Source: a bacterium
Lineage (GTDB): Bacteria; Patescibacteriota; Andersenbacteria; UBA10190
Assembly: GCA_030698495.1 (NCBI GenBank)
Contig: JAUYKA010000008.1
Location: 78,895-142,894 of the forward strand
Direction: 5' to 3'
DNA: 64,000 nucleotides
Within the stretch, counting starts at the first letter, position 1; the number at the start of each line of letters is the position of its first letter. Under the pieces are notes generated by a model. It was not told where the DNA came from, ran no database searches, and saw only the letters and a program-made list of their open reading frames with translations. Both the position numbers and the translations under genes were made by a program. Positions 1,168 to 46,479 of this stretch are shown here, piece after piece.

Positions 1168-3492
1168 TTAAGGCGTACGCGCCTGGCCCAGAGCTATGAG
1201 ATCGATAGCGATAGCAGCCTGGTCGGAGTTGATAATATTAAAAGTAATAAACCCCTGATTATCTATGGGAGCATCAATGGAATTGATTAGGATAGTGGTA
1301 CTATCTGTCGGCAAAGTCAATGACCGGCCGGTGGGGGTATCAATGGACAGATGAGACGAGGCTGACTGGAGCTCTACCATTAACTCAAGGTTGGTATCTG
1401 AATAGCCGGTGTTTTCTTTGTCCCAAAGCGCTTGGACGTAGTCGCCGATATTGAAACGAAGCGGTATAACGGGCGCTTTTGTGGAACGAAACGTTAAGCC
1501 GTTTGATTTCTGTGGAGCAGATAATCGGGTGGCACGCAAGCTGGCGGGTAGATGTTCGTACGTGTCTTCATCGTCCCCGATATCGTTGGCAATGGTATTG
1601 GAACGCAAGAGCCAGGTTATGTCATCAGGTTTTAGGTTTGATGTAACCGGAGGGAGATTGGGTATGACCGAGTAAAGAACAGTGTCGTGAGCGGCCATAA
1701 CCGGGGTTAGTATGGGGTTGGCGGCGAAAGCGCTGTCGGATGTACCGGTGATACCTGTCAGCCAGTTGATATTTTGTTTGGCAAGAAGAGATTGAATGAC
1801 GGGAGAGCTGCCCAGGGAAAATATTTTTTCCATATCCAATTGGTTCAGATACAGCTGGTAGCGCAAAGAAGATTGCCCGGCTTCTTGCATTTGTCTTTGC
1901 AGGTCGGCAGCAACCCGGCTATACGTTGGGTGTCCAGCTAAAAGCAGCCATGAGGCGGTCCGGCGGTTATAATCATCGGGCAGTATGGCCCCTGGGGTTG
2001 TTTGGCGATGCAGGTAATCAATCAGGCTGGAAATCGCTGGTGTCAGGGTTGAGTTGGTGCGTACCGATAAAGACGGTGTGAATGCCAGGGTCGTTTGCCA
2101 AACGGAAGCGCCAATGATTATGACCGTAGCAACCAGAGCGGTGATGGAGCGCGGCCAATCGCGACGAGAGAAGTTTGACCATAGGCAATACAGGAAAAAA
2201 GCGCCGGTTATACTGAAAAAGAAAGCGGCGTAGAAGAGTGTGCGCACCGGCGGAATGTCGATGAAGAAACGCGGGGCTTGCGAGAGGAAAAGTAATATTA
2301 TGGTACCGGCGGCAAAAGCGATTATCGACAGTTGTTGTTTGGGATGCCGAATAAGAGAAAGCATTACTACCAATCCGGCCAGTCCGGCGCCAAGCCAAAC
2401 AGCGCCCATAATATCGGGGTAATCCGTGATAGCGGGTAGAAGGTTGGCCAGATGCGGGCTAGACGAGAAAAGGTGAGGTATTTTGGACAATAAACCCAGC
2501 CGCCAGCCAACCAGTAAGACAGTGGCGATTACAGTAGAGATAATGGTCCAGAATAGGCGGCCGACACGGTGTTTGATAACGAGATTGATCAAAAGGAGAA
2601 GTGCGGTCGGCAATAAAATAAACGCGCCCAGAAAAAGTGAGAACTGATGACTGACGGCAAGCGCGGCTATTAATAGAAGCGCGAGAATAATATCGGACCA
2701 GCGCCAGCAACGCAAAAGGCGCAGGCCGACGAATAAAAGGCCAAATATAAATACTTCACCAAAAACATTTTGGAAGTGGTAGCCTGGTGTGGCAATGTAG
2801 CGCAGAAAGCGGAAATTAGTCAGCAGCAAAAAGACGGTGGCGGTGGAAACAAAAATAGCCGGCGGGCGGGGAAAAACAGTAATAGCGCACGCAGATGCCA
2901 AGAGAGCGATGGCGAGAGCGACGGCAATTGACGTAAATCCGACGGCGGCTAAGGGCTGGGGCGCAACGCGTATGATTAAAGCCGTGAACGCGTGCAATCC
3001 GGGAGTATAAAAATCAATCGGATCCCGATGTAGCTGCTTAATCGATGAGGAATAATCGGGAAGATGATGATTGATTAGTATCTGTTGCCCCCAATAAATA
3101 GCTTTCTGGCTGTCTCCGGTGGGTAAGCCGGCGTAACGGTAGATAAAAAATAATCCGTAACTGAAATACAGCGCGAGAATAGCAGTGATTAGAAAGATTT
3201 GAAGGTATTTTTTTTGAGTCGGCCAGTGGCCGGTTCGGCGCCAGATTCGAGAAGAATGCCTGAAGACCACATAGAGTAAAATCAAGAATGATAAAATAAA
3301 ATACCAGATAGGGTCGAGGCCGGCAGCGACTGCGCCGAGAGTGCCGAGCACGCCTGCAACCAGGCTCCAAAGTAAAACATAGGCAGTTTTAATAATGATC
3401 AAATCACGATGATATATATGCCAAATTATGATTCCGGGCGAGATAAAAAAGTATATCGGCCATAAGGCGGAGATTAAATAAGTGAAGTCCAT
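1168..3492 (-). CDS. large polytopic membrane protein (about 560 aa TM region + about 200 aa C-terminal extracytoplasmic domain), putative GT-C-type glycosyltransferase
   Basis: 774 aa ORF; >12 hydrophobic helices; architecture resembles ArnT/PMT-like GT-C enzymes; embedded in glycosyltransferase cluster. No diagnostic motif confirmed. Confidence 0.35.
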   Translation of the reverse strand: MDFTYLISALWPIYFFISPGIIIWHIYHRDLIIIKTAYVLLWSLVAGVLGTLGAVAAGLDPIWYFILSFLILLYVVFRHSSRIWRRTGHWPTQKKYLQIFLITAILALYFSYGLFFIYRYAGLPTGDSQKAIYWGQQILINHHLPDYSSSIKQLHRDPIDFYTPGLHAFTALIIRVAPQPLAAVGFTSIAVALAIALLASACAITVFPRPPAIFVSTATVFLLLTNFRFLRYIATPGYHFQNVFGEVFIFGLLFVGLRLLRCWRWSDIILALLLIAALAVSHQFSLFLGAFILLPTALLLLINLVIKHRVGRLFWTIISTVIATVLLVGWRLGLLSKIPHLFSSSPHLANLLPAITDYPDIMGAVWLGAGLAGLVVMLSLIRHPKQQLSIIAFAAGTIILLFLSQAPRFFIDIPPVRTLFYAAFFFSITGAFFLYCLWSNFSRRDWPRSITALVATVIIIGASVWQTTLAFTPSLSVRTNSTLTPAISSLIDYLHRQTTPGAILPDDYNRRTASWLLLAGHPTYSRVAADLQRQMQEAGQSSLRYQLYLNQLDMEKIFSLGSSPVIQSLLAKQNINWLTGITGTSDSAFAANPILTPVMAAHDTVLYSVIPNLPPVTSNLKPDDITWLLRSNTIANDIGDDEDTYEHLPASLRATRLSAPQKSNGLTFRSTKAPVIPLRFNIGDYVQALWDKENTGYSDTNLELMVELQSASSHLSIDTPTGRSLTLPTDSTTILINSIDAPIDNQGFITFNIINSDQAAIAIDLIALGQARTP

Positions 3493-5523: not shown

Positions 5524-7311
5524 ATGTGGTTGACAATAATTATTTTAGCTGCCGGATCACTGGCGGCGGCAGGTGTTTTATTTAAGCAGGAACGGGTGAT
5601 TGTTTGGTTGGCATGTGCCGGCGTTTTAGCGGAAGGCCAATGGATGTTGTTATCGTTAATTAAACGGACATTAGCGCCCGGCATTAACGAAGAGTGGTTC
5701 TTTTTGGCTGGTGCTATAGTGCTTACTCTTGTTTGGGGCGCCGGATGGCGGAAATTTAAGTTACCCGTCTTCGGAGTGAATTGGTGGATGAAGGAAGGGG
5801 TGGTATTGTTATTGATCCTTATTACCGGTGCCGGGGCATGGCTAGTATGGTCGGTTAATGGCTGGGATGACGGCCAATGGGTGACACATGGATTTTTAAA
5901 TGGGGATACGACTACTTTCACGGCTCTGGTTCAGCGTTCTTTCGATGAGCCTGGATTAGTGAGCGCCAACCCATTTGCGGCCGGAGAAAATTTGGAATAC
6001 CCGACCGTTTTGCACGGAGCGGTAGCGGATTTCTTATTAAGTATTAAGGCGGAAGGTAAACTGCTTGCTTATCTGAAATGGTTTACCTACGGGCAGATTG
6101 CATTAACAATACCTTGTTTTTTCTTGTTGTTAGATATTTTTAACCCGGAACCGGCGGAAAAGTGGCAGCGCTGGTATAGCTTAGTAAGCAGGCGGGCGGT
6201 TCTTCTGTTGCAGGGAGGAGTAGTCTTGTATGTTATGGCTTTGTCGTGGGACGGATTTGTTTATCCGCAAAGTCATTTCTTTTTAACTGGTCTATACATA
6301 CTGACAGCCTCACTTTTGTTGTCGGCGGAACGACAATCCGGTAGAGCGCAGTTTCTGATGGTTGCAACGGGTAGCGTGACGGCGTTACTGCTATTACTGT
6401 CTAACGCGGTTATGGGCACGGCCGCTGCAGGTTTGGTAATTATATTTTACTTAACGCGCGCCATGGACAAAAAAAGAAGTGTGCCAGAAAGAGCGACGTG
6501 GTTGATTGCGACATTGATTTGGCCGCTGGTATTTATAACAGCTACACCCGGTAATGGTTCTTTCGGCGTACCAGGGTTTTCTTATACGGCAGCTGGCGAC
6601 ATGATAAGATTGGCGCCAATACTGTTTTTGTTATTTGCCGTAGTTTTAGAAAGAATTTCACGCAATACATTAATGAGTAGCTGGGTAATGGGATTATCAT
6701 CGATCGCGTTAATAACATTTGTTTTCTCGACCAGAGATATTGTAGTAGCTAATTCGGCCCGTTTTTTTTACCAGGCTATTTTAGTAGTTTTTCCTTTGTT
6801 AATTTATAGCGTCATTAGGATTTGGTATTGGCTGAAACGAGAGTTGATATTTTCAACACGCTCTGTGGTAGAGACGGTAAGCGGATGGGCTGGGGTAACC
6901 GTGCTGGGGGTTTTAATATTAATGCCGGCGGCGGCAAGCATAGTCAGTGCCCACGATAATCTTCAGCGTAAAGATCAGCAAATTATCAGTAGAGGTCAGG
7001 TTCAGGCAAGTGCATGGCTAAAGAGTCATACGGCAACAGAAGTGGTGTGGCTGGCGCAGCCGAATGAGCCATGGATTATTCCGGCAATGACGGGAAGATC
7101 AATGCTGCGTACCGATTTTTGGCTGTCACCGGAGGATAGTACATTTTCTAGTGTTAAAGCGGCTTTGGCTGGTGATTCTCGCGCGCGTAAAGAGATTTTA
7201 GAAAAAGTTGACTATGTCTGGCTAAACAGGGAGGAAGCAAACAGGTGGGGAGGGACGACGGGGGAAAAGGTCTTTGATGACGGTGATGTTATTATTTACA
7301 AAACCAGGTGA
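5524..7311 (+). CDS. polytopic membrane protein with C-terminal soluble domain, putative membrane glycosyltransferase/polymerase
   Basis: 595 aa, many TM helices, divergent from GT2 gene; no recognised motif. Confidence 0.3.
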   Translation: MWLTIIILAAGSLAAAGVLFKQERVIVWLACAGVLAEGQWMLLSLIKRTLAPGINEEWFFLAGAIVLTLVWGAGWRKFKLPVFGVNWWMKEGVVLLLILITGAGAWLVWSVNGWDDGQWVTHGFLNGDTTTFTALVQRSFDEPGLVSANPFAAGENLEYPTVLHGAVADFLLSIKAEGKLLAYLKWFTYGQIALTIPCFFLLLDIFNPEPAEKWQRWYSLVSRRAVLLLQGGVVLYVMALSWDGFVYPQSHFFLTGLYILTASLLLSAERQSGRAQFLMVATGSVTALLLLLSNAVMGTAAAGLVIIFYLTRAMDKKRSVPERATWLIATLIWPLVFITATPGNGSFGVPGFSYTAAGDMIRLAPILFLLFAVVLERISRNTLMSSWVMGLSSIALITFVFSTRDIVVANSARFFYQAILVVFPLLIYSVIRIWYWLKRELIFSTRSVVETVSGWAGVTVLGVLILMPAAASIVSAHDNLQRKDQQIISRGQVQASAWLKSHTATEVVWLAQPNEPWIIPAMTGRSMLRTDFWLSPEDSTFSSVKAALAGDSRARKEILEKVDYVWLNREEANRWGGTTGEKVFDDGDVIIYKTR

Positions 7312-17461: not shown

Positions 17462-17570
17462 AATTGTCTTGTTGACTAGATAATTTATAAAGTTATACGC
17501 TGTTTGGGTGTTGTTTGGGGTTGTTTTTTTGACAATTTACATGTGTTCCCCAGTTCAAGAAGGAGCTGAT

Positions 17571-18479
17571 ATGGGTACAACGGGAGTGAATACAGCAGAT
17601 AACACTGTTGATCAGTTGGTTTTTGAGTCAGGTTCAGTTGGGGACGTGGCCGTCCATAACCTATTAATGGGCGGTCCGGGAGGCATACCTTTGTATCAGG
17701 GCACTCTGCCGTTGACGCTGTATCTGAAGCAGTTGGCGTCGCTATATGCGGGACAGGAAGAATTCAATACTGGCCTGGTGCCGTGTGGGATGAATGTTCG
17801 GGCAACGTATCAACGTTACGGAATGACTGTTTTTCTGGTTGAAGTTGCCCCCAGTACCAGAACGCTCAAGTGGATAAGGGATGATTCCCCTGCGCCGTAC
17901 GGTAATGAAGCAACTTACTGTGATGCTTGTATTTCTTTGCCGTACCAATATTTCTTTGTGACGATTGATAATATGACGATTGATAACTCGCCGAGGCTGA
18001 CTAGCCATAACAGTGTTTACTTTGCTAATCAGCCTATCACCAGTTTGGATGAGCCGTTGGGGGAGTGTCATTTTCACAACTGTTCCGTGAACGCCTATAG
18101 TTTGCATTGTTGGATTTGCACTCAGTGGTTATCCGGAGATATGGGGCTAGGCAAAAACCCTGCACCTATGCAGTTGGTGGCTGCGTTCATTGAGTGGTTC
18201 TACGCTTCTGGCTTCAATCGCAGCTCTGATTTTCACGAAGGAACCAGTTTCTGGAGCCGGAACAGACAGGAGCTGGGCGATAAGCGTTTGGAGAATATTG
18301 CCGCCTGGAAAAGGGCGTCATCTAGAAATCCTGGGTTTGTGCTGCGGGTGAAGTGGCGTCCTAGCTTAACGGCAAGGGAAGTACTTGAGGAGCTGACCAG
18401 AATACCGGACCGCCGCCCGTCGGGATTACTTGATTTGGTTAATATTTACCGCGCAGCGACGTCTAGGCGGGGAGGATAG
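17571..18479 (+). CDS. uncharacterised Cys/His-rich protein; possible UBC-like (E2-like) fold; ends in ...RRGG
   Basis: Start chosen at ATG preceded by AAGGAG (track ORF starts 17508). Segment YFFVTIDN...SHNSVYFAN...ECHFHNCSVNAYSLHCWICTQWLS...PMQLVAAFIEWF resembles the UBC HPN-loop/catalytic-Cys/helix arrangement; first gene of operon with E1-like gene. Confidence 0.3.
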   Translation: MGTTGVNTADNTVDQLVFESGSVGDVAVHNLLMGGPGGIPLYQGTLPLTLYLKQLASLYAGQEEFNTGLVPCGMNVRATYQRYGMTVFLVEVAPSTRTLKWIRDDSPAPYGNEATYCDACISLPYQYFFVTIDNMTIDNSPRLTSHNSVYFANQPITSLDEPLGECHFHNCSVNAYSLHCWICTQWLSGDMGLGKNPAPMQLVAAFIEWFYASGFNRSSDFHEGTSFWSRNRQELGDKRLENIAAWKRASSRNPGFVLRVKWRPSLTAREVLEELTRIPDRRPSGLLDLVNIYRAATSRRGG

Positions 18480-18540
18480 GAACGTTGTTTATTCAGGTTA
18501 GTGGTTGTGTCATCCACTATTAACAGTTGGAGGTAAGCTG

Positions 18541-19353
18541 ATGTTTCAGGAAAGAAACGACGACTGGCTACAGGGGGTGTTGCCGGCGGAAGCGCCGCTC
18601 GTTGGCGTTGGTTTGGGTGGAATTTGCGAAGGTTGGTTGCCTAACGTATTGCTGTACATGCAGGCGGGTGTTTTGCCGCTAAAACGTGTCATCCTTGTTG
18701 ATGGCAAGAAGTTTTCTGCCCATAATCATGGCCGCCAGAACTTTCGGAATGAGGCTAATAAGGCCGAGGAGAGAAAAGTGATGTGGGGCGCTATGTACCC
18801 CACTCTGCCGATATATGCGGTTGGCCAGTTTGTGGATGAGCACAACATTGCGCAGTTTATTCCCGAGGGCACAGTGGTGTTGCTGTCTCCAGACAATCAT
18901 CCGACACGAGCATTGTTCGCCAGGCATGTCAGCACGCTGAATAACGCTCTGTTGATTTGCGGCGGTAACGATGGTATTAATAAGGAAGGAGGGGAGGATG
19001 GTACCCAGGGTTGGGCAGCGATTTACTGCCGAAGGGCAGGAATGAACGTAACTGCACCACTAACGACGTATCATCCGGAAATCGCGGAAGCGTCTGAAAA
19101 AATGCCGTCAGTAATGAGCTGTATGGAATTGGCGCAAGCCGGACAGCCACAGCTGCTGGCAACAAATCTGCACGTTGGACAAATAATGGCATATCTGTTG
19201 CATCGTTATCTGACCATGCCTTTAGGGCAAGCGTTGGAAGTGGTGGAGCAGAGATGCAATATTGCCACAGGGGAAGTCGTTCGGTTTGGTATCCGCGAGC
19301 GTTTCGCGGATACGGTGTTTTGTCTGGGTCACGAGAAAGGAGAACCATCATGA
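18541..19353 (+). CDS. E1-like ThiF/MoeB-family adenylyltransferase (non-canonical, no CxxC zinc motifs, no rhodanese)
   Basis: Start at ATG after GGAGG. GVGLGGICEGWLPNVLLYMQAGVLPLKRVILVDGKKFSAHNHGRQNF matches the E1 nucleotide-binding loop and the D-x8-N-x2-RQ adenylation motif; LSPDNHPTRALFARHVSTLNNALLICGG matches the downstream E1 block. Confidence 0.6.
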   Translation: MFQERNDDWLQGVLPAEAPLVGVGLGGICEGWLPNVLLYMQAGVLPLKRVILVDGKKFSAHNHGRQNFRNEANKAEERKVMWGAMYPTLPIYAVGQFVDEHNIAQFIPEGTVVLLSPDNHPTRALFARHVSTLNNALLICGGNDGINKEGGEDGTQGWAAIYCRRAGMNVTAPLTTYHPEIAEASEKMPSVMSCMELAQAGQPQLLATNLHVGQIMAYLLHRYLTMPLGQALEVVEQRCNIATGEVVRFGIRERFADTVFCLGHEKGEPS

Positions 19354-38031: not shown

Positions 38032-38060
38032 TTGACTTTTAGTCAATGATTTGTTATACT
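38032..38060 (+). promoter_or_regulatory. sigma-70-like promoter TTGACT-17-TATACT
   Basis: TTGACT 38032-38037, 17-nt spacer, TATACT 38055-38060, about 65 nt upstream of ATG 38128. Confidence 0.4.
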
Positions 38061-38127: not shown

Positions 38128-39168
38128 ATGAATGAAACAATAAAGTTTAACGAAATAACCGCTTCTTTACTGGGAGTGCTGGACGCACGCTCTCAAGACA
38201 TATTAACGCGTCGTTATGGTTTGAACAGCGAGGAGAAAGAGACGCTGGAAAGCATTGGCCGCGAGTATGGCATTACCAGAGAAAGAGTGCGCCAACTGCA
38301 AACGCAGGCGAAAAAAGTGGTTATAGAGATGAAGGAAGCATATATGCCGGTTAGTGCTGTTTTTAATGAAGTATTCTCGCGCCACGGGGGTATTATGGTG
38401 GAATATTATGCCGTGAGTGTTCTTCGAGATTCAGCGCCTAGTGAAAAGCCCCGGTCAAATGTAGTATCGTTTTATTTGGACTTACTGCCTAATTTCGAGT
38501 ATGTCAGCCGTGATGCTGATTTTGTGCCTCATTGGCGGCATAATGCGTTGGTTAATGAGCGAGGAAGAGAAGCTGTGGCATGCGTTAAAGACATACTGCA
38601 AAAAGAGAAACATCCTATTGGCGAAGATGAATTGGTGCGAAAAGTCAGACAGGAAGGGTTATGGGAGGAAAGTGTCTTACCCCAAGATCATTTAATGGCG
38701 CAGTTATCGGCCAGCAAGCTTATTCGTAAAACTCCGTTTGGCGAGTGGGGTCTGGAAGATTGGCCGGAGACAAGTCCGCGCGGTGTCGGTGATAAGGCAT
38801 ACGCGGTATTGAGACGTCACGGAGAGCCGGAGCATTTTACCAGAATTTCAGAGATGATAAACGAAGCTAATTTTGATCACAAGCGCGCGAATGCCCAGAC
38901 GGTTCATAATGAATTGATTAAGGATGATCGCTTTGTCCTGGTCGGGCGCGGGTTATATGGTTTGAAAGAGTGGGGGTATGTTCCCGGTACCGTAGCCGAC
39001 GTGATCGAATCCTTACTTAAAGAAGCGGGAAAACCGTTGTCACGGGAAGAAGTTATTGACCGCGTACTGGCTCAACGACAGGTAAAAAAGAACACTATTG
39101 TGTTGGGTTTGCAAAACAGTGACAGATTTGTCCGAACCGACGACAGCCGATATACAGCGAAAGGATAG
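38128..39168 (+). CDS. DNA-binding protein: N-terminal sigma-70 region-4-like HTH + two HARE-HTH-like winged-helix domains
   Basis: LDARSQDILTRRYGLNSEEKETLESIGREYGITRERVRQLQ (sigma r4); two repeats of the pattern A..VL...G.P.HF..I...I.........TV...L..D.RFV..GRGLYGLKEW (residues about 215-270 and about 290-340). Confidence 0.5.
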   Translation: MNETIKFNEITASLLGVLDARSQDILTRRYGLNSEEKETLESIGREYGITRERVRQLQTQAKKVVIEMKEAYMPVSAVFNEVFSRHGGIMVEYYAVSVLRDSAPSEKPRSNVVSFYLDLLPNFEYVSRDADFVPHWRHNALVNERGREAVACVKDILQKEKHPIGEDELVRKVRQEGLWEESVLPQDHLMAQLSASKLIRKTPFGEWGLEDWPETSPRGVGDKAYAVLRRHGEPEHFTRISEMINEANFDHKRANAQTVHNELIKDDRFVLVGRGLYGLKEWGYVPGTVADVIESLLKEAGKPLSREEVIDRVLAQRQVKKNTIVLGLQNSDRFVRTDDSRYTAKG

Positions 39169-39224
39169 ACATTAGTAAATAGCAAGAGACGACCAACAGA
39201 CTGCAGACTAACGGCTGCAGTCTG

Positions 39225-40517
39225 TTGTATAATACCGACATGATATTCCTTTGGACCGCATTGGCACAATTGGGCGGTGTTATTGTCGCCTGGGGATGGC
39301 TGCTATTTTTGTTTTTGGCTTTATGGGTAGCCTGGGAGACTTATTTGTTTATCAAGCACGTTGATTATACTAATGCAATTAAGTGGACCTTTCTGGAAAT
39401 AACGGTGCCGGAGGATACACCGCAGACACCGAAGGCGATGGAGAATGCTTTTGATGTGTGGGGCGGTATTCATAAAGATCCGGATTTGATTGAAAAATAT
39501 TTTGAGGGATATTTTCTGGCTTGGTATTCCTGCGAGATTCAGTGCAAGCGAGATCAAGTACGTTATATTCTGGTGGTACCGACAGTGCACGCCAAATTTT
39601 TTGAAGGAGTAGTTTACGGACAATACTCGGCGGCACATGTTACGGAAGTAGAAGATTACACGCAGGAATATTCTTTTCGCGATTTGGAAAAAAAATATGA
39701 TTTATATGGCACGGAGATTGTGCTGGTTAAAGACGATTACTATCCGATTCGAACTTACCGCGAATACGAAGACACTTTTGCGGAAGATGATAAGTACGTT
39801 GATCCGCATCAGGCCCTAATTGAGGCGTACACGAATATTGGTGAAGGAGAGCAGTTTTGGGTACAAGTGCTGGTTAAGCCGGTGGCGGGGGATGACATAC
39901 AGAAGTGGGCGGATAAGGGGCAGGATAAAATTGCGGAAATTTCCGGGCAAAAGAAAGAAGTGCCGGAAGGAATTTGGGCGCAATTAAGTGGTTTACTGAC
40001 TAAGCTGCCGGGAGAGATCCTGGGGGCGTTCGTTAACGGTCCGACAACCCCGGAGGATAAGAAGAAAGAAGCGCTGGAACTGCGTTTTCATAATCCGGCG
40101 CAAGACGCGGAAATGAAGGGGATACTGCTAAAGGTATCGCATTCGGCATATAAGACTAAGCTCCGGTTGATTTACATTGCGCCAGTGGGAAAGCTGGATA
40201 AACCCAGTATTTCTAAAGCAATCGGCGTGTTTAAACAGTTTAATACTTTTCATCTTAATTCTTTAAAGCCGGATCCGGCGACGAAAACTAACGGGCCGAA
40301 TTATGTGCTGAAACAATCGCGCCGACACTTCCGTAAAAAATCGGTGCTGCTGAACTATCAATGGCGAGATTTTTGGGGAGATGAGAGCGGACAAATGTTG
40401 GTGGCGGAAGAGTTGGCGACGTTGTATCATTTGCCGGTTAAGTACCTAAAGTCGCCGGTCGTACGTCATTCTCCTTCCGGCTTAGGCAGCCCGCCGGATA
40501 ATTTACCTTACGTCTAA
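39225..40517 (+). CDS. membrane protein (2 N-terminal TM helices + large soluble domain), partner of downstream TraD/VirD4-like ATPase
   Basis: 430 aa; MIFLWTALAQLGGVIVAWGWLLFLFLALWVAW TM hairpin; 10-nt gap to ATPase gene. Confidence 0.4.
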   Translation: MYNTDMIFLWTALAQLGGVIVAWGWLLFLFLALWVAWETYLFIKHVDYTNAIKWTFLEITVPEDTPQTPKAMENAFDVWGGIHKDPDLIEKYFEGYFLAWYSCEIQCKRDQVRYILVVPTVHAKFFEGVVYGQYSAAHVTEVEDYTQEYSFRDLEKKYDLYGTEIVLVKDDYYPIRTYREYEDTFAEDDKYVDPHQALIEAYTNIGEGEQFWVQVLVKPVAGDDIQKWADKGQDKIAEISGQKKEVPEGIWAQLSGLLTKLPGEILGAFVNGPTTPEDKKKEALELRFHNPAQDAEMKGILLKVSHSAYKTKLRLIYIAPVGKLDKPSISKAIGVFKQFNTFHLNSLKPDPATKTNGPNYVLKQSRRHFRKKSVLLNYQWRDFWGDESGQMLVAEELATLYHLPVKYLKSPVVRHSPSGLGSPPDNLPYV

Positions 40518-40527
40518 CGGTTCTTTT

Positions 40528-42267
40528 ATGCCCGAAGACAGTGAAAATGAAATAAACATTTTAGGCCAGACTAATTTTCGCGGTCAGCACCGGCAGTTTG
40601 GCATTTATCCCGATGATAGGCGCCGACATGTTTACGTGGTTGGGAAAACGGGAGTGGGCAAGTCCACCCTGTTGGAAAACATGATTGCGCAGGACATTAT
40701 TCATAACAAGGGGGTTTGTCTGGTTGATCCGCACGGGGATACGGTGGAACGTCTGCTTAACGCGGTGCCGCCGAGCCGGATTAACGACGTGGTGTATTTT
40801 GATCCGTCCGATGTGGATTGGCCGGTGGCATTTAATGTACTGGAGGCAGTAGATCCGGCTTATAAATATCTGGTGGCGTCGGGGCTAGTCAGCTCGTTGA
40901 AGAAAATGTGGGCGGATTCCTGGGGGCCGCGGCTGGAGTATATTTTGCGCAATACGATTTTAGCGTTACTGGATTATCCTTCCAGCACAATTTTGGGTAT
41001 TCTGCGCATGCTTTCCGATAAGACTTACCGCAAAAAAGTGGTTGATAAAATTTCCGATCCGGTAGTGAAGAGTTTTTGGACAAATGAATTCGCCAATTAT
41101 AACGAGCGCTTCCGCACGGAAGCTATTTCGCCTATTCAGAACAAAGTGGGTCAGTTGTTAAGCTCGGCGATTATCAGAAATATCGTGGCGCAACCCAAGA
41201 GCACTATTGATATGAAGGATATCATGGACAATGGCAAGATTTTACTGGTCAATATGTCAAAAGGAAAAATCGGTGAGGATAATTCCGGTTTGCTGGGAGC
41301 AATGATTATTAATCGGATTCAGCTGGCGGCCATGGACAGAGCCAGCATCCCCGAAGAAGAAAGGCGAGACTTTTACCTGTACGTGGATGAGTTCCAAAAC
41401 TTTGCCACGGAGTCTTTCGCGGATATTTTATCGGAAGCCAGAAAATACCGGCTGAATTTGACGGTGGCGCATCAATATATCGCGCAGATGGAAGAAGAAG
41501 TGACTGATGCCGTTTTCGGCAACGTCGGGACGATTGTCGCCTTTCGTGTAGGCGCGGCCGATGCTGAGTATTTAGAACAAGAATTCGCGCCAGTGTTTAC
41601 CCAAACCGATTTGGTTAACCTGGATAAATATAACGCTTATTTAAAATTAATGATAAACGGCATTAGCAGTAAGCCTTTTAGTATGCAGGCACTGCCGCCG
41701 GTGATGGAAAACTTCGGCAAAGGAGAAGTGGTAAGAATGGTGTCGCGCGAGCGTTTTGGCCATAAAAGGGAGATCGTGGAGGATAAGATCAGGCGCTGGA
41801 GCGGTATAGTACTGGGTGAGGCCGGAGAAGAACAAAGTGCACCGCAATATTCACCGCGATCATACAGCGGCGGCGAAAGAAGACCGGGACGCGGCCGACA
41901 AACGTCGACAGAAAGGCATGAGGCTAGGCAAGCGCCAGCGCAAATTAACAAGGAACAGTTGGCAGATGTGGTGCTGCCTATTTCGGCTAAACCAATTACG
42001 GATTTGGCGGCGGTGTTATCGCAGGGGCCGAACACAAGCAGTTCGACGCGAAGAGGCAGCGCGCGCGGTTTTGAAGTGATATGTCGCCGATGCGGCAAGA
42101 AGACCGAGGTGCCTTTTGATCCTGATCCGGCCAAGCCGGTTTATTGTAAGGAATGTTTCCAAATCGTAAGGCAAGAAAAAGCGGGGGAACGAGAGCGGAA
42201 AGTAAATACGGTTGACGCCAGGGTATCTAAACGATTTAGCGGTCCGCAACCGCCGGCATTGCCATGA
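40528..42267 (+). CDS. TraD/TraG/VirD4-like (type IV coupling-protein-like) P-loop ATPase with disordered basic linker and C-terminal CxxC...CxxC zinc ribbon
   Basis: VVGKTGVGKSTLLENMIAQDI ... LVDPHGD (Walker A + TrwB-like block); FYLYVDEFQNFAT (Walker B); RKYRLNLTVAHQYIAQM (TraG-D_C-like); C-term CRRCGKKTEVPFDPDPAKPVYCKEC. Confidence 0.55.
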   Translation: MPEDSENEINILGQTNFRGQHRQFGIYPDDRRRHVYVVGKTGVGKSTLLENMIAQDIIHNKGVCLVDPHGDTVERLLNAVPPSRINDVVYFDPSDVDWPVAFNVLEAVDPAYKYLVASGLVSSLKKMWADSWGPRLEYILRNTILALLDYPSSTILGILRMLSDKTYRKKVVDKISDPVVKSFWTNEFANYNERFRTEAISPIQNKVGQLLSSAIIRNIVAQPKSTIDMKDIMDNGKILLVNMSKGKIGEDNSGLLGAMIINRIQLAAMDRASIPEEERRDFYLYVDEFQNFATESFADILSEARKYRLNLTVAHQYIAQMEEEVTDAVFGNVGTIVAFRVGAADAEYLEQEFAPVFTQTDLVNLDKYNAYLKLMINGISSKPFSMQALPPVMENFGKGEVVRMVSRERFGHKREIVEDKIRRWSGIVLGEAGEEQSAPQYSPRSYSGGERRPGRGRQTSTERHEARQAPAQINKEQLADVVLPISAKPITDLAAVLSQGPNTSSSTRRGSARGFEVICRRCGKKTEVPFDPDPAKPVYCKECFQIVRQEKAGERERKVNTVDARVSKRFSGPQPPALP

Positions 42268-42338: not shown

Positions 42339-43025
42339 ATGAGGACAAGTAATCCTAACGAAAAATTGGTAGTTGATAAGCCGTTTGATTTTGCGGAGGA
42401 CGCTAATTGGCGAATTTTTCGTATAATGGCGGAGTTCATCGAGGGGTTTGAGTTCTTGGCGCCGTTACGCAAGGAAGTGACTTTTTTTGGATCAGCAAGG
42501 CTCAAAGAAGATTCGTATTGGTACAAACAAGCGCAACGGCTTGGTTATTTATTGGGTAAGAATGGTTTTACGGTAGTTACCGGTGGGGGGCCGGGGATAA
42601 TGGAAGCGGGTAACCGGGGCGCTTACGAAGCGGACGGACAGTCTATTGGGCTAGATATTGAACTGCCGACAGAACAAAGGCGCAATCCTTACATACGCAA
42701 AGGAATAGGTTTCCATTATTTCTTTACCAGAAAAGTAATGCTGTCGGCTTCAGCGCAAGCTTATGTGTTTTTTCCGGGAGGATTCGGTACGTTGGATGAG
42801 TTTTTCGAAATGGTGACGCTGCAGCAGACAAAGAAGATGGAGAACGTGCCAATTGTTTGCGTGGGACATGATTTTTGGGAGGGGTTAGATGACTGGGTGA
42901 AGAAAAATTTGGTTGAGAAATATAAAACGATTAATAGTGATGACAGCTCAATATATACGGTGGTAGATTCGGCAGAAGAAGCATTTGCTATTATCAAAGA
43001 CACAAAGGAGCGGAAGTATTTCTGA
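42339..43025 (+). CDS. LOG-family (TIGR00730) Rossmann-fold nucleotide-binding protein / cytokinin riboside 5'-monophosphate phosphoribohydrolase-like
   Basis: VTGGGPGIMEAGNRGA and PGGFGTLDE motifs. Confidence 0.8.
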   Translation: MRTSNPNEKLVVDKPFDFAEDANWRIFRIMAEFIEGFEFLAPLRKEVTFFGSARLKEDSYWYKQAQRLGYLLGKNGFTVVTGGGPGIMEAGNRGAYEADGQSIGLDIELPTEQRRNPYIRKGIGFHYFFTRKVMLSASAQAYVFFPGGFGTLDEFFEMVTLQQTKKMENVPIVCVGHDFWEGLDDWVKKNLVEKYKTINSDDSSIYTVVDSAEEAFAIIKDTKERKYF

Positions 43026-45129: not shown

Positions 45130-46479
45130 ATGCGAGATATACGACCACAGGGGCCGCGACGGCGGCCAAACAGAATGATACCGCCCCCAGCGGGCGAAGC
45201 TATGTTTGCGGTGCCAAAGGCTAAATTGCCGGGCGCGAGAGTACCGATCGCCAATGTGCAGGTGCCCAAGCCGTCTATTAGTCGTCCGTCGATACCGGGC
45301 GGCGGCGGACCGGGCCAACTGCGCTCCAGTGGAAAGATAAGGTTGGGCCAGAGAGAGAAAACGGTGGTGGCCGTAATTGTCGGTTTGGCTATTATAGCCA
45401 GCTTGATTGGTGTTATTATTTTTTTGCCAACAGCCAGAATAGAGCTGTCGCTAAAAACGGCGCCGCTTTTAGTTGACGAGAAGATGATAATTAAGGCGCA
45501 GGCTGATAGTCAGTCTAACGAGGTTCCCGGAACGGCTTTTTTTAGAGAAGTAACGGTTGACGGTTCGAGCCCGGTGCAAAGTACGGAAGTAATAGGAAGT
45601 AAAGCGGCCGGGGAAGTATATTTAGTAAACAGAAGTTTCGACGAACAGAAGATTAAGGAGAACAGCAGGCTGGTAACCAAGGACGATCAATTATTTTACA
45701 TGAAGCAGGCAGTGACTATTCCGGCCGCTACCAGCGGCGGTCTGGCGCGCGTGCCGGTAACAGTAGAGGCGGCAGAGGCCGGGGAGGCGGGCAATATCGA
45801 AGCGCAGCGGTTGGATTTCGCGGCTCTGCCGGAGGCGGCACAAGCGCTGGTTTATGCCGAGGCAGATAAGCCGCTGGATGGCGGGAGAGGTGACGAGGTT
45901 AAAGTTATTAAAGATGCCGACCTGGAAGCGGCTAAGAAAACCGCGGGACAGCAAGCACGGGATCAGGTGGAGCAGGAAATCCGCGATCAACTACCCAAAG
46001 GATGGACAATAATGGAAGAAAGCTGGACAGTGGATCTGGAATCTTTTGATACGGAAGCAAAAACCGATAGCCGACAGGAGACCGTGTCATATCAGGCAAG
46101 AGCGGCGGTACATGTGTTTGGTTATGAAGGGGCCAAGTTAGAGAATAAATTAAAGGATGCCTTGACAGCACGCTTGGATGAACAATATATGCTGTTCCCG
46201 GGGCCAATTTCTTACACGAAAAGCGTAGAGAACATTGACTGGGAAGTTGGTGAGGCTGATATATCAGCACGCGTGACGCACACTACCGTCCCCAAAATAT
46301 CACTGGATGTTTTGCGGGAAAAGCTAGCCGGCCGATCAAAAAGTGAAACGAAACAATACCTAGAGGGATTAACGGGGGTGCAGTCGGCGCAGATTGATTT
46401 GTGGCCGTTTTGGGTGAATGTCGTGCCGAGAATAGCCAATCGAATCAATATCGATTTACAGCCAGATAGGCAACCGTAG
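45130..46479 (+). CDS. hypothetical bitopic membrane protein with Pro/Arg/Gly-rich N-terminal tail and large extracytoplasmic domain
   Basis: 449 aa; single TM (VVAVIVGLAIIASLIGVIIFL) after basic/Pro-rich segment; no recognised domain. Confidence 0.4.
   Translation: MRDIRPQGPRRRPNRMIPPPAGEAMFAVPKAKLPGARVPIANVQVPKPSISRPSIPGGGGPGQLRSSGKIRLGQREKTVVAVIVGLAIIASLIGVIIFLPTARIELSLKTAPLLVDEKMIIKAQADSQSNEVPGTAFFREVTVDGSSPVQSTEVIGSKAAGEVYLVNRSFDEQKIKENSRLVTKDDQLFYMKQAVTIPAATSGGLARVPVTVEAAEAGEAGNIEAQRLDFAALPEAAQALVYAEADKPLDGGRGDEVKVIKDADLEAAKKTAGQQARDQVEQEIRDQLPKGWTIMEESWTVDLESFDTEAKTDSRQETVSYQARAAVHVFGYEGAKLENKLKDALTARLDEQYMLFPGPISYTKSVENIDWEVGEADISARVTHTTVPKISLDVLREKLAGRSKSETKQYLEGLTGVQSAQIDLWPFWVNVVPRIANRINIDLQPDRQP

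Follow-up and report, generated by a model that had tools for sequence, protein, structure and literature searches.

Analysis of a 64,000-nucleotide stretch of contig JAUYKA010000008.1 from Candidatus Andersenbacteria (Patescibacteria/Candidate Phyla Radiation, CPR), called the window below, showed that two adjacent genes on its + strand, gene A (39225..40517, 430 aa) and gene B (40528..42267, 579 aa), are the two halves of one ATPase of the type IV coupling protein (T4CP) lineage, whose gene has been split in the Andersenbacteria-like lineage. Gene A encodes the N-terminal half, a DUF8128 (PF26449) protein with a membrane anchor and a domain that appears to resemble the N-terminal domain (NTD) of VirB4, and gene B encodes the C-terminal half, a TrwB/VirD4-type P-loop ATPase without a transmembrane (TM) segment. 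The DUF8128-ATPase is a core chromosomal gene of the phylum and lies outside any local conjugation or secretion cluster. We estimate at roughly 50% the probability that it serves in nucleic-acid handling that no longer supports conjugation, with a helix-turn-helix (HTH) protein encoded beside it as the DNA-recognising partner. Both genes had been proposed as a coupling-ATPase module in an initial annotation of the window, and both proved to be real open reading frames (ORFs), separated by a gap of 10 nt. One protein deposited from a Candidatus Andersenbacteria metagenome-assembled genome (P0121) is 100% identical to gene B.

The ATPase encoded by gene B

The results of our Pfam searches showed that gene B scored above the gathering threshold for TrwB_AAD_bind (2.6e-9), DUF87 (5.5e-8), T4SS-DNA_transf (3.1e-7) and TraG-D_C (2.1e-6), DUF87 being a generic domain also found in VirB4 and T4CP-like proteins. 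Comparison of the ATPase family profile with R388 TrwB by hhalign gave a probability of 94.9% (E 4.6e-8) over 265 columns, in an alignment that started just past the TrwB membrane domain and covered the nucleotide-binding and helical regions, whereas only the P-loop aligned with R388 TrwK/VirB4, at a probability of 5.5%. The aligned part of TrwB (residues 118-393) spans its all-alpha domain, and helices were modelled by AlphaFold2 (AF2) at residues 110-221 of gene B, between the core strands, with low confidence (pLDDT 42-77). A sequence search of the PDB placed TrwB first and DotL next. The AF2 model of gene B was poor (pLDDT 58), and since the model is weak, its Foldseek ranking (DotL, TrwB and Cag-beta, afterwards the DndH C-domain and HerA) is taken only as support for the sequence result. 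These comparisons support the initial description of gene B as a coupling-protein-like ATPase of the TrwB/VirD4 type.

The motifs listed in that annotation were all found. Walker A (GKTGVGKS, residues 39-46) lies at 40642..40665 and Walker B (YLYVDE(F), residues ~283-289) at 41374..41391 for residues 283-288, with the RKYRLNLTVAHQ block at residue 305. In 38 homologues, G39, K40, T41, G42, V43, G44 and K45 of Walker A and L284, D287 and E288 of Walker B were invariant, as was the RK..AHQ block downstream of Walker B, and gene B is predicted from these catalytic motifs to be an active enzyme. No hydrophobic segment was present in gene B (maximum KD19 1.39), which agreed with the claim that it has no TM segment.

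The C-terminus was described less accurately. A disordered low-complexity linker (residues 426-515, 41803..42072; pLDDT <50 over residues 424-490) leads to a treble-clef zinc ribbon (CxxC-x17-CxxC, residues 519-543, 42082..42156) whose cysteines C519, C522, C540 and C543 are invariant. The ribbon stood, and was matched by Pfam zf_Tbcl_2 (PF23477; 1.7e-13, 50.5 bits, cutoff 27) and by TIGR04272 of NCBIfam (7.9e-14, 51.1 bits, cutoff 36). The basic tail of about 120 residues turned out to be about 90 residues long and only mildly basic (12 K/R versus 9 D/E, pI ~10), and tail length varied from 60 to 360 aa throughout the family.

Three other identities were considered for gene B and rejected. 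Pfam FtsK_SpoIIIE matched residues 33-54, that is, the P-loop only (E 0.017), with no match to the gamma winged helix or to a 4-TM domain; the HerA model NF040819 also matched the P-loop only (E 0.046), and no NurA was found nearby. Neither family thus gave the full-length best match that would have spoken against a coupling-type ATPase. Membership of the VirB4/TrbE/CagE group was rejected by sequence, there being no CagE_TrbE_VirB match and a TIGR00929 score of 20.7 bits against a cutoff of 643.

Gene B aligns with the TrwB/VirD4 T4CPs (R388 TrwB, PDB 1e9r/1gl7; DotL; Cag-beta) over the ~265 columns given above, which take in the P-loop nucleotide-binding domain and the region of a possible helical insertion. 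It differs from TrwB in lacking the N-terminal 2-TM domain, the anchor being one helix on a separate protein, that of gene A, together with a ~380-aa DUF8128 domain that TrwB does not have. It also differs from TrwB and VirD4 in carrying a C-terminal zinc ribbon, in having no relaxase or mating-pair genes nearby, and in being chromosomal, near-universal in its phylum and highly conserved.

The DUF8128 protein encoded by gene A

Our Pfam/NCBIfam library scan, with a library that did not contain PF26449, gave no match for gene A. Precomputed annotation assigned PF26449 to the NCBI gene call for gene A and to ~110 of 120 homologues among the matches listed, and a search with our own DUF8128 profile returned 2,177 cluster representatives. 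No paper on DUF8128 was found in our literature search.

The initial annotation had given gene A a hairpin of two TM segments followed by a large soluble domain. The soluble domain, of ~380 residues, was confirmed, and the hairpin was not. Gene A has a hydrophobic stretch at its N-terminus (residues 6-44), and 50 of 61 diverse family members have, by hydropathy, one such stretch, usually of 19-33 residues. A conserved TM helix lies at about residues 19-43 of gene A (39279..39353; ...VIVAWGWLLFLFLALWVAWETYLFI), with the conserved pattern WGWL...LW.AW, and the AF2 model has one helix over residues 4-51. A single anchor helix is most likely, being better supported than the hairpin. The suggestion that the upstream protein simply supplies the TM anchor missing from a VirD4 protein did not hold either, since most of it is the DUF8128 domain, which is absent from canonical T4CPs.

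The domain ends in a motif, EELATLYHLP ... NLPY (40375..40514), that abuts the ATPase in fused orthologues and contains the invariant or near-invariant columns E395, E396, A398, T399, H402, P404, P424 and P428. This motif aligns with its equivalents in phage G gp156 and in a Shouchella plasmid protein, both of which are considered below.

The AF2 model of gene A was good (pLDDT 80.5, pTM 0.76). Comparison of the DUF8128 model with the PDB by Foldseek placed TrwK/VirB4 structures at all of ranks 1-11 (E 4e-5 to 2e-3, TM-scores 0.33-0.37), while generic double-ferredoxin folds gave E ~0.1 or worse. Among viral models (BFVD), gp156 of phage G (9e-17) and further proteins from Bacillus phages matched the DUF8128 model, which also matched the N-terminal part of the VirB4-like protein gp155 (6.9e-6) and, weakly, a 'type IV transporter component' (1.4e-2). 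No link between DUF8128 and VirB4 was seen by hhalign of two profiles against TrwK (probability <1%) or by a PDB sequence search, and a Pfam scan of the 61 members found nothing consistent. The DUF8128 fold thus appears to bear a moderate likeness to the VirB4 NTD, at the level of structure. The DUF8128-ATPase shares with VirB4 (TrwK) the order of an NTD followed by an ATPase; it differs in that DUF8128 has no detectable sequence similarity to VirB4 and in that its ATPase half aligns with TrwB instead.

Split and fused forms

A pattern scan for DUF8128 homologues, with one genome per GTDB species, gave 63 related loci from Andersenbacteria, Portnoybacteria, Kerfeldbacteria, Azambacteria, Saccharibacteria/Saccharimonadia, Berkelbacteria, Peribacteria and Gracilibacteria. 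When all ORFs were searched with profiles, an ATPase domain was found immediately after DUF8128 in 62 of the 63, so that conservation of the pair in related genomes goes far beyond chance. The two domains are separate ORFs in 29 loci, those of the Andersenbacteria-like group and its relatives, as in the window, and form a single ORF of 800-1190 aa in 33 loci, with 5-10 residues and no TM segment in between. The soluble part of DUF8128 must therefore lie in the cytoplasm, as the ATPase does. The remaining locus (L021, 874-2088) holds an orphan second DUF8128 copy of 404 aa, from the genome of locus L020, with no ATPase downstream.

Fusions were also found outside this set. The metagenomic protein P0379 (956 aa) is a fusion whose C-terminal half is 63% identical to gene B, and PHROG 5156 is a profile of 824 positions of which the first half matches gene A and the second half gene B. 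SEML1_0293 of Candidatus Southlakia epibionticum ML1 (Saccharibacteria) is a positional orthologue of 921 aa in which ~400 residues precede the ATPase (TrwB_AAD_bind at 402-719) and which, like most of the loci described below, adjoins a gene for a sigma-region-4/HARE-HTH protein; it differs from genes A and B in being fused, and no zinc ribbon was seen in any fused form. The initial remark that the module looked as if a coupling protein had been split can thus be taken literally, both parts lying in one polypeptide in 33 of the 63 loci, in SEML1_0293 and in P0379.

Of 27 complete split ATPases, 24 carried the zinc ribbon, whereas all 37 fused ones examined lacked it; this association probably goes back to one or very few evolutionary events, and the link between ribbon and split is therefore a correlation, not a statistic. 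In one locus (L025, 10383-11825) the zinc-ribbon segment is encoded by an ORF of its own that overlaps and follows the ATPase, perhaps through a frameshift or a further split, and in another (L030, 5556-5966) a stand-alone ORF of 137 aa with a zinc-ribbon motif lies upstream of the fused gene. Tandem fused DUF8128-ATPase paralogues occur in four loci from Berkelbacteria and relatives (L040, 4883-11087; L046; L047, 3193-8746; L054, 4656-11036). The first copy has ~830-840 aa and almost no tail, and the second has 860-1040 aa and a long tail, the second copy of L046 ending at the contig end. These four loci have no sigma/HARE-HTH gene.

Gene B was 46-80% identical to its counterparts across all 63 loci, which exceeds the values for MurG or MurC in the same loci. 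Comparison of the window with Saccharibacteria gave identities of 49-60% for the ATPase, 27-38% for MurG and 33-40% for the HTH protein. The module appears, from these comparisons, to be vertically inherited in Patescibacteria, with strong purifying selection on the ATPase.

Relatives in mobile elements and phages

The DUF8128 profile matched residues 40-316 of WP_248290882.1, a protein of 883 aa encoded by the Shouchella clausii ENTPro plasmid NZ_CP012476, with a probability of 98.8% (E 5.6e-17, hhalign), and the ATPase half of this protein is 28% identical to gene B. Encoded next to it are a Replic_Relax relaxase, TcpC, TcpE and a VirB4-like ATPase, and it is presumably a working conjugative T4CP. 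It has the same two-domain architecture as genes A and B, and it differs in being a single polypeptide with no TM helix, an acidic tail, no zinc ribbon and conjugation genes as neighbours.

Phage G gp156 (825 aa) is likewise a fusion, with an ATPase 31% identical to gene B (1e-42) and an N-terminus that matched DUF8128 at an hhalign probability of 90%. The DUF8128-like and ATPase architecture is shared by gp156 and its relatives (PHROG 5156); gp156 differs from genes A and B in being phage-encoded, in adjoining a VirB4-like gene, and in having neither a sigma/HARE partner nor a zinc ribbon. In jumbo phage G (L064, 1196-5338), the VirB4-like gp155 (P-loop_TraG, AAA_10) lies directly upstream of the gp156 fusion. 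Proteins related to gp156 were seen in Bacillus phages CP-51, Shanette and JL.

A haloarchaeal plasmid homologue gave a marginal DUF8128 match (probability 49%). The best plasmid match, from Sulfitobacter (40% identity), is a lone ATPase gene beside transposases and is uninformative, and a scan of IMG/VR with the DUF8128 patterns found no relatives. As judged from these sequence comparisons, the family is a distinct coupling-ATPase subtype, in which DUF8128 precedes a T4CP-type motor, that is present in monoderm mobile elements and would have been adopted by Patescibacteria.

Genomic neighbourhood

The gene directly upstream of gene A (38128..39168, + strand) encodes a protein of 346 aa with sigma-70 region 4 (residues 14-61; Sigma70_r4, 2.2e-12) and a HARE-HTH winged helix (residues 223-282; HARE-HTH, 5.7e-14; both Pfam). 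A promoter-like site, TTGACT-17-TATACT, precedes it at 38032-38060 (+ strand). This sigma-region-4/HARE-HTH gene lies directly upstream of the module, on the same strand, in 51 of the 63 loci, and is missing only from loci of the Gracilibacteria/Peribacteria/Berkelbacteria type and from those with tandem paralogues. The multi-winged-helix protein appears to be uncharacterised and may merit study in its own right.

The wider neighbourhood is made up of housekeeping genes in all loci, often genes related to DNA or to the cell envelope. The module is preceded by murC and murG in Andersenbacteria, by der-pth-dprA-topA in Saccharimonadia, where murG and a penicillin-binding protein (PBP) gene follow it, and directly by ruvX in Gracilibacteria/Peribacteria. 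The murG, mur ligase or PBP genes adjoin the module in 30-37 of the 63 loci, in two different arrangements. In the window the genes before the module are in the order scpA-scpB-dacX-mraY-murD-ftsW-murG-murC, dacX being a D-Ala-D-Ala carboxypeptidase gene, and scpAB lie ~9 kb upstream; the module follows this series at the place where ftsQAZ are usually found. The window is otherwise of the same housekeeping character, with glycosyltransferase genes, a LOG-family gene, alaS, ribosomal protein genes, rpoA, murA, mreB, secA and secDF.

The initial annotation had placed the module apart from any other conjugation genes, and locally this was borne out. Pfam scans of all large ORFs found no relaxase, VirB4, VirB6, VirB8, VirB11 or TcpC/E in the 64-kb window, a tblastn search with proteins of R388 and Gram-positive type IV secretion systems (T4SSs) found no T4SS or relaxase homologue there, and BLAST found none within 8 kb in any of the 63 related loci. 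The claim does not extend to the genome, since VirB4 is encoded elsewhere in most Andersenbacteria, including the genomes of two of our loci, L007 and L022 (PMC12102498 Table S1).

Between the HTH gene and gene A, reading of the sequence revealed a perfect 10-bp inverted repeat, CAGACTGCAG-N8-CTGCAGTCTG (39199-39226, + strand), which could be a weak terminator or hairpin, or an operator. Directly 3' of the repeat, TGTATAAT, an extended -10-like element, runs into ATG 39240 (up to 39242, + strand), which suggests a candidate extended -10 promoter that would give a nearly leaderless gene A mRNA. The start codon of gene A is ambiguous (TTG 39225, ATG 39240 or TTG 39261), and its true position is uncertain because the repeat and the -10-like element sit directly before ATG 39240.

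Other features of the window

A LOG/SLOG gene (42339-43025; Lysine_decarbox, LDcluster4) lies directly downstream of the ATPase gene, as it does in 18 loci of the Andersenbacteria type, and may encode a nucleotide-processing enzyme. The DprA encoded upstream of the module in Saccharimonadia loci likewise matches LDcluster4. Downstream of alaS, an ORF of 449 aa (45130-46479) that is kept in ~15 related loci has a faint Baseplate_J match and otherwise no confident Pfam match, its basic, proline-rich N-terminus being followed by a TM-like segment. ORFs of 774, 595, 323 and 282 aa without any Pfam match were found in the glycosyltransferase-rich region, at 1168-3492 (-), 5524-7311 (+) and 17508-19353 (+). 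Nearly all genes are on the + strand from ~27 kb onward, and the GC skew is strongly and evenly positive in every 2-kb bin (0.13-0.36, mean ~0.23), with no switch point.

Discussion

That Patescibacteria carry orphan VirD4 homologues was already known. A 2025 survey of 3,035 of their genomes found 5,713 VirD4-type homologues in 2,918 genomes (~96%), only 148 of them near virB4, together with VirB4 in 2,417 genomes (80%) and few relaxases (109 in 103 genomes); its authors pointed out that the Southlakia homologue is not essential and left exaptation possible (PMC12102498). Transposon sequencing (Tn-seq) of Southlakia showed that SEML1_0293 is non-essential at all time points, its reads dropping ~4-fold from T0 to T2 and those of its neighbours staying flat, and that the adjacent sigma/HARE-HTH gene, SEML1_0294, is essential (PMC10633639). 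The same paper describes the essential T4SS of Southlakia as having no recognisable coupling protein. Each of these two genes, SEML1_0293 and SEML1_0294, carries a '1' in Table S1 columns that we take as flags for enrichment in Patescibacteria (PMC10633639). A second T4CP-like Southlakia protein, SEML1_0142 (1019 aa, TraM-recognition domain, P-loop domain at 381-800; PMC10633639 Table S1/S2), may be a paralogue with ~380 residues before the ATPase domain; it and the small preceding gene SEML1_0141 were both essential in Tn-seq (PMC10633639). To this our analysis adds a partner domain, DUF8128, the existence of split and fused forms, the restriction of the zinc ribbon to split forms, the synteny with the sigma/HARE-HTH gene and a connection with a subtype of coupling ATPases found on Gram-positive plasmids and in Bacillus phages.

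The ATPases TrwB and VirD4 form hexamers and are stimulated by DNA, and from this biochemistry genes A and B would together form a membrane-tethered hexameric translocase. DUF8128 would give each subunit one N-terminal membrane helix and a cytoplasmic scaffold like the VirB4 NTD, the ATPase would be the motor, and the disordered basic tail with its zinc ribbon would be an arm that binds nucleic acid or an adaptor. Because six single helices cannot form a channel, the membrane conduit would be supplied by another component. The substrate would be DNA, possibly RNA, handled at the cytoplasmic membrane rather than in conjugative plasmid transfer, and recognition or loading of the substrate would fall to the upstream HTH protein as partner. 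We infer that hexamers form, that the substrate is nucleic acid, that the HTH protein is a partner and that the module works independently of conjugation.

The module would descend from the coupling ATPases of monoderm conjugative elements, a descent that we propose because the DUF8128 profile matches the ATPase of the Shouchella conjugation cluster. In Patescibacteria it would have turned into a core gene of the chromosome that is passed on vertically and has lost its link to relaxase and mating-pair genes. It would form an operon-like unit with the gene for an essential DNA-binding protein of the sigma-region-4/HARE-HTH type, and the ancestral single gene would have been split between its domains in lineages of the Andersenbacteria/Paceibacteria/ABY1 type. 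We favour a nucleic-acid role because the ATPase is extremely conserved and more widespread than VirB4, relaxases are rare, an HTH gene constantly adjoins the module and its context concerns DNA metabolism. The initial annotation had put forward competence, pilus function or host interaction in an episymbiont, rather than conjugation, as candidate roles.

Several points weigh against this reading. The fused Southlakia orthologue is non-essential and its HTH neighbour is essential; from this mismatch the HTH protein would have a further role, probably in transcription, and regulation or history may be all that underlies the synteny. The adjacency of dprA and topA is common in bacteria at large and hence is weak evidence. 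The likeness of DUF8128 to the VirB4 NTD was seen by Foldseek only, at a TM-score of ~0.36 and with no link between sequence profiles, and AF2 modelled the ATPase poorly (pLDDT 58). Finally, the VirB4 encoded elsewhere in most Andersenbacteria leaves room for a coupling role in trans.

Such a role is the alternative that survives best, and we regard it as possible, with the odds clearly against it. The module would then be an ordinary coupling protein of a monoderm-type T4SS encoded elsewhere, docking on VirB4/VirB6 and handing effectors or DNA to a host-facing channel. Its closest characterised relatives are T4CPs, its architecture is present in a bona fide Gram-positive conjugation cluster, and the VirB4-NTD-like domain could mediate docking beside VirB4. 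T4CP genes often lie away from virB4, and 80% of Patescibacteria genomes, most Andersenbacteria included, have VirB4. However, the Southlakia T4SS genes are essential and the T4CP homologue is not, and T4CP homologues are more prevalent (96%) than VirB4 (80%). The ATPase is also conserved beyond housekeeping enzymes, which is unusual for an accessory T4CP, its conserved partner is the sigma/HARE-HTH protein and no T4SS component, and all 63 loci are free of T4SS genes within 8 kb.

It is unlikely, but conceivable, that the DUF8128-ATPase, loaded by the HTH protein, is the cytoplasmic motor of a nucleic-acid import system specific to Patescibacteria. The conserved com genes listed for these bacteria are ComEC, ComFC and DprA, and ComEC of Southlakia is non-essential yet needed for transformation (PMC10633639). 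Such a route could carry transforming DNA; the phylum has these three proteins and no annotated ComFA motor. According to a 2026 preprint, host RNA is food for a Patescibacteria epibiont, by an uptake route that the preprint leaves open. If this idea were true, a conjugative coupling protein would have been reversed into an uptake engine that imports transforming DNA, or host RNA or DNA as a nucleotide supply, and where the gene was split the zinc ribbon would have arisen as a new tether between motor and anchor or as a grip on the polymer.

We think it more doubtful still that the module is a division or segregation pump that keeps the division site clear of DNA or positions DNA there, beside FtsK, in a budding-type division of epibionts. 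The ATPase does belong to the FtsK-HerA superfamily of DNA pumps, the module follows scpAB and the division and cell wall (dcw) genes in the window, where ftsQAZ usually lie, and cell-wall genes adjoin it in about half of the loci (30-37 of 63, as given above). This synteny may be inherited gene order, however, and the ATPase has no FtsK gamma-like or 4-TM domain, its Pfam FtsK_SpoIIIE match being confined to the P-loop (E 0.017). The genuine FtsK of Southlakia, SEML1_0096, is complete and essential (PMC10633639), whereas the module is dispensable there.

An anti-phage defence ATPase related to Mad8 of MADS or to HerA-type systems is very improbable. PADLOC mad8 (PDLC04140) was the best-scoring single profile for the ATPase core, aligning over residues 12-374 (4.2e-18), some HerA defence models matched weakly, and the DndH C-domain was among the Foldseek matches. 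Against this, no other MADS gene (methyltransferase, nuclease, kinase etc.), Dnd gene or HerA-partner gene was found among the neighbours, and gene A and the flanking genes had no PADLOC match except that of the upstream sigma-region-4 gene to MzaA; the near-universal, syntenic occurrence in a core housekeeping context is the opposite of patchy defence islands. We give hardly any credence to the idea that the module is left over from an integrated conjugative element or prophage and serves no purpose in the cell, which the homologues in Bacillus phages (phage G gp156, CP-51, JL) and plasmids and the match of PHROG 5156 to both genes might suggest, since no integrase, relaxase, repeat or tRNA landmarks were found in the window, its base composition is uniform, the module keeps its chromosomal position from class to class, its ATPase being under strong purifying selection, and the DUF8128 patterns found no relatives in IMG/VR.

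Nucleic-acid handling outside conjugation is thus the role that we favour for the DUF8128-ATPase. Much of bacterial diversity belongs to the Patescibacteria, which live on molecules taken from host cells. Our analysis gives a defined anatomy to the orphan VirD4-like gene that ~96% of their genomes carry, and because the Southlakia orthologue is non-essential and the organism is genetically tractable, the roles considered here are directly testable.

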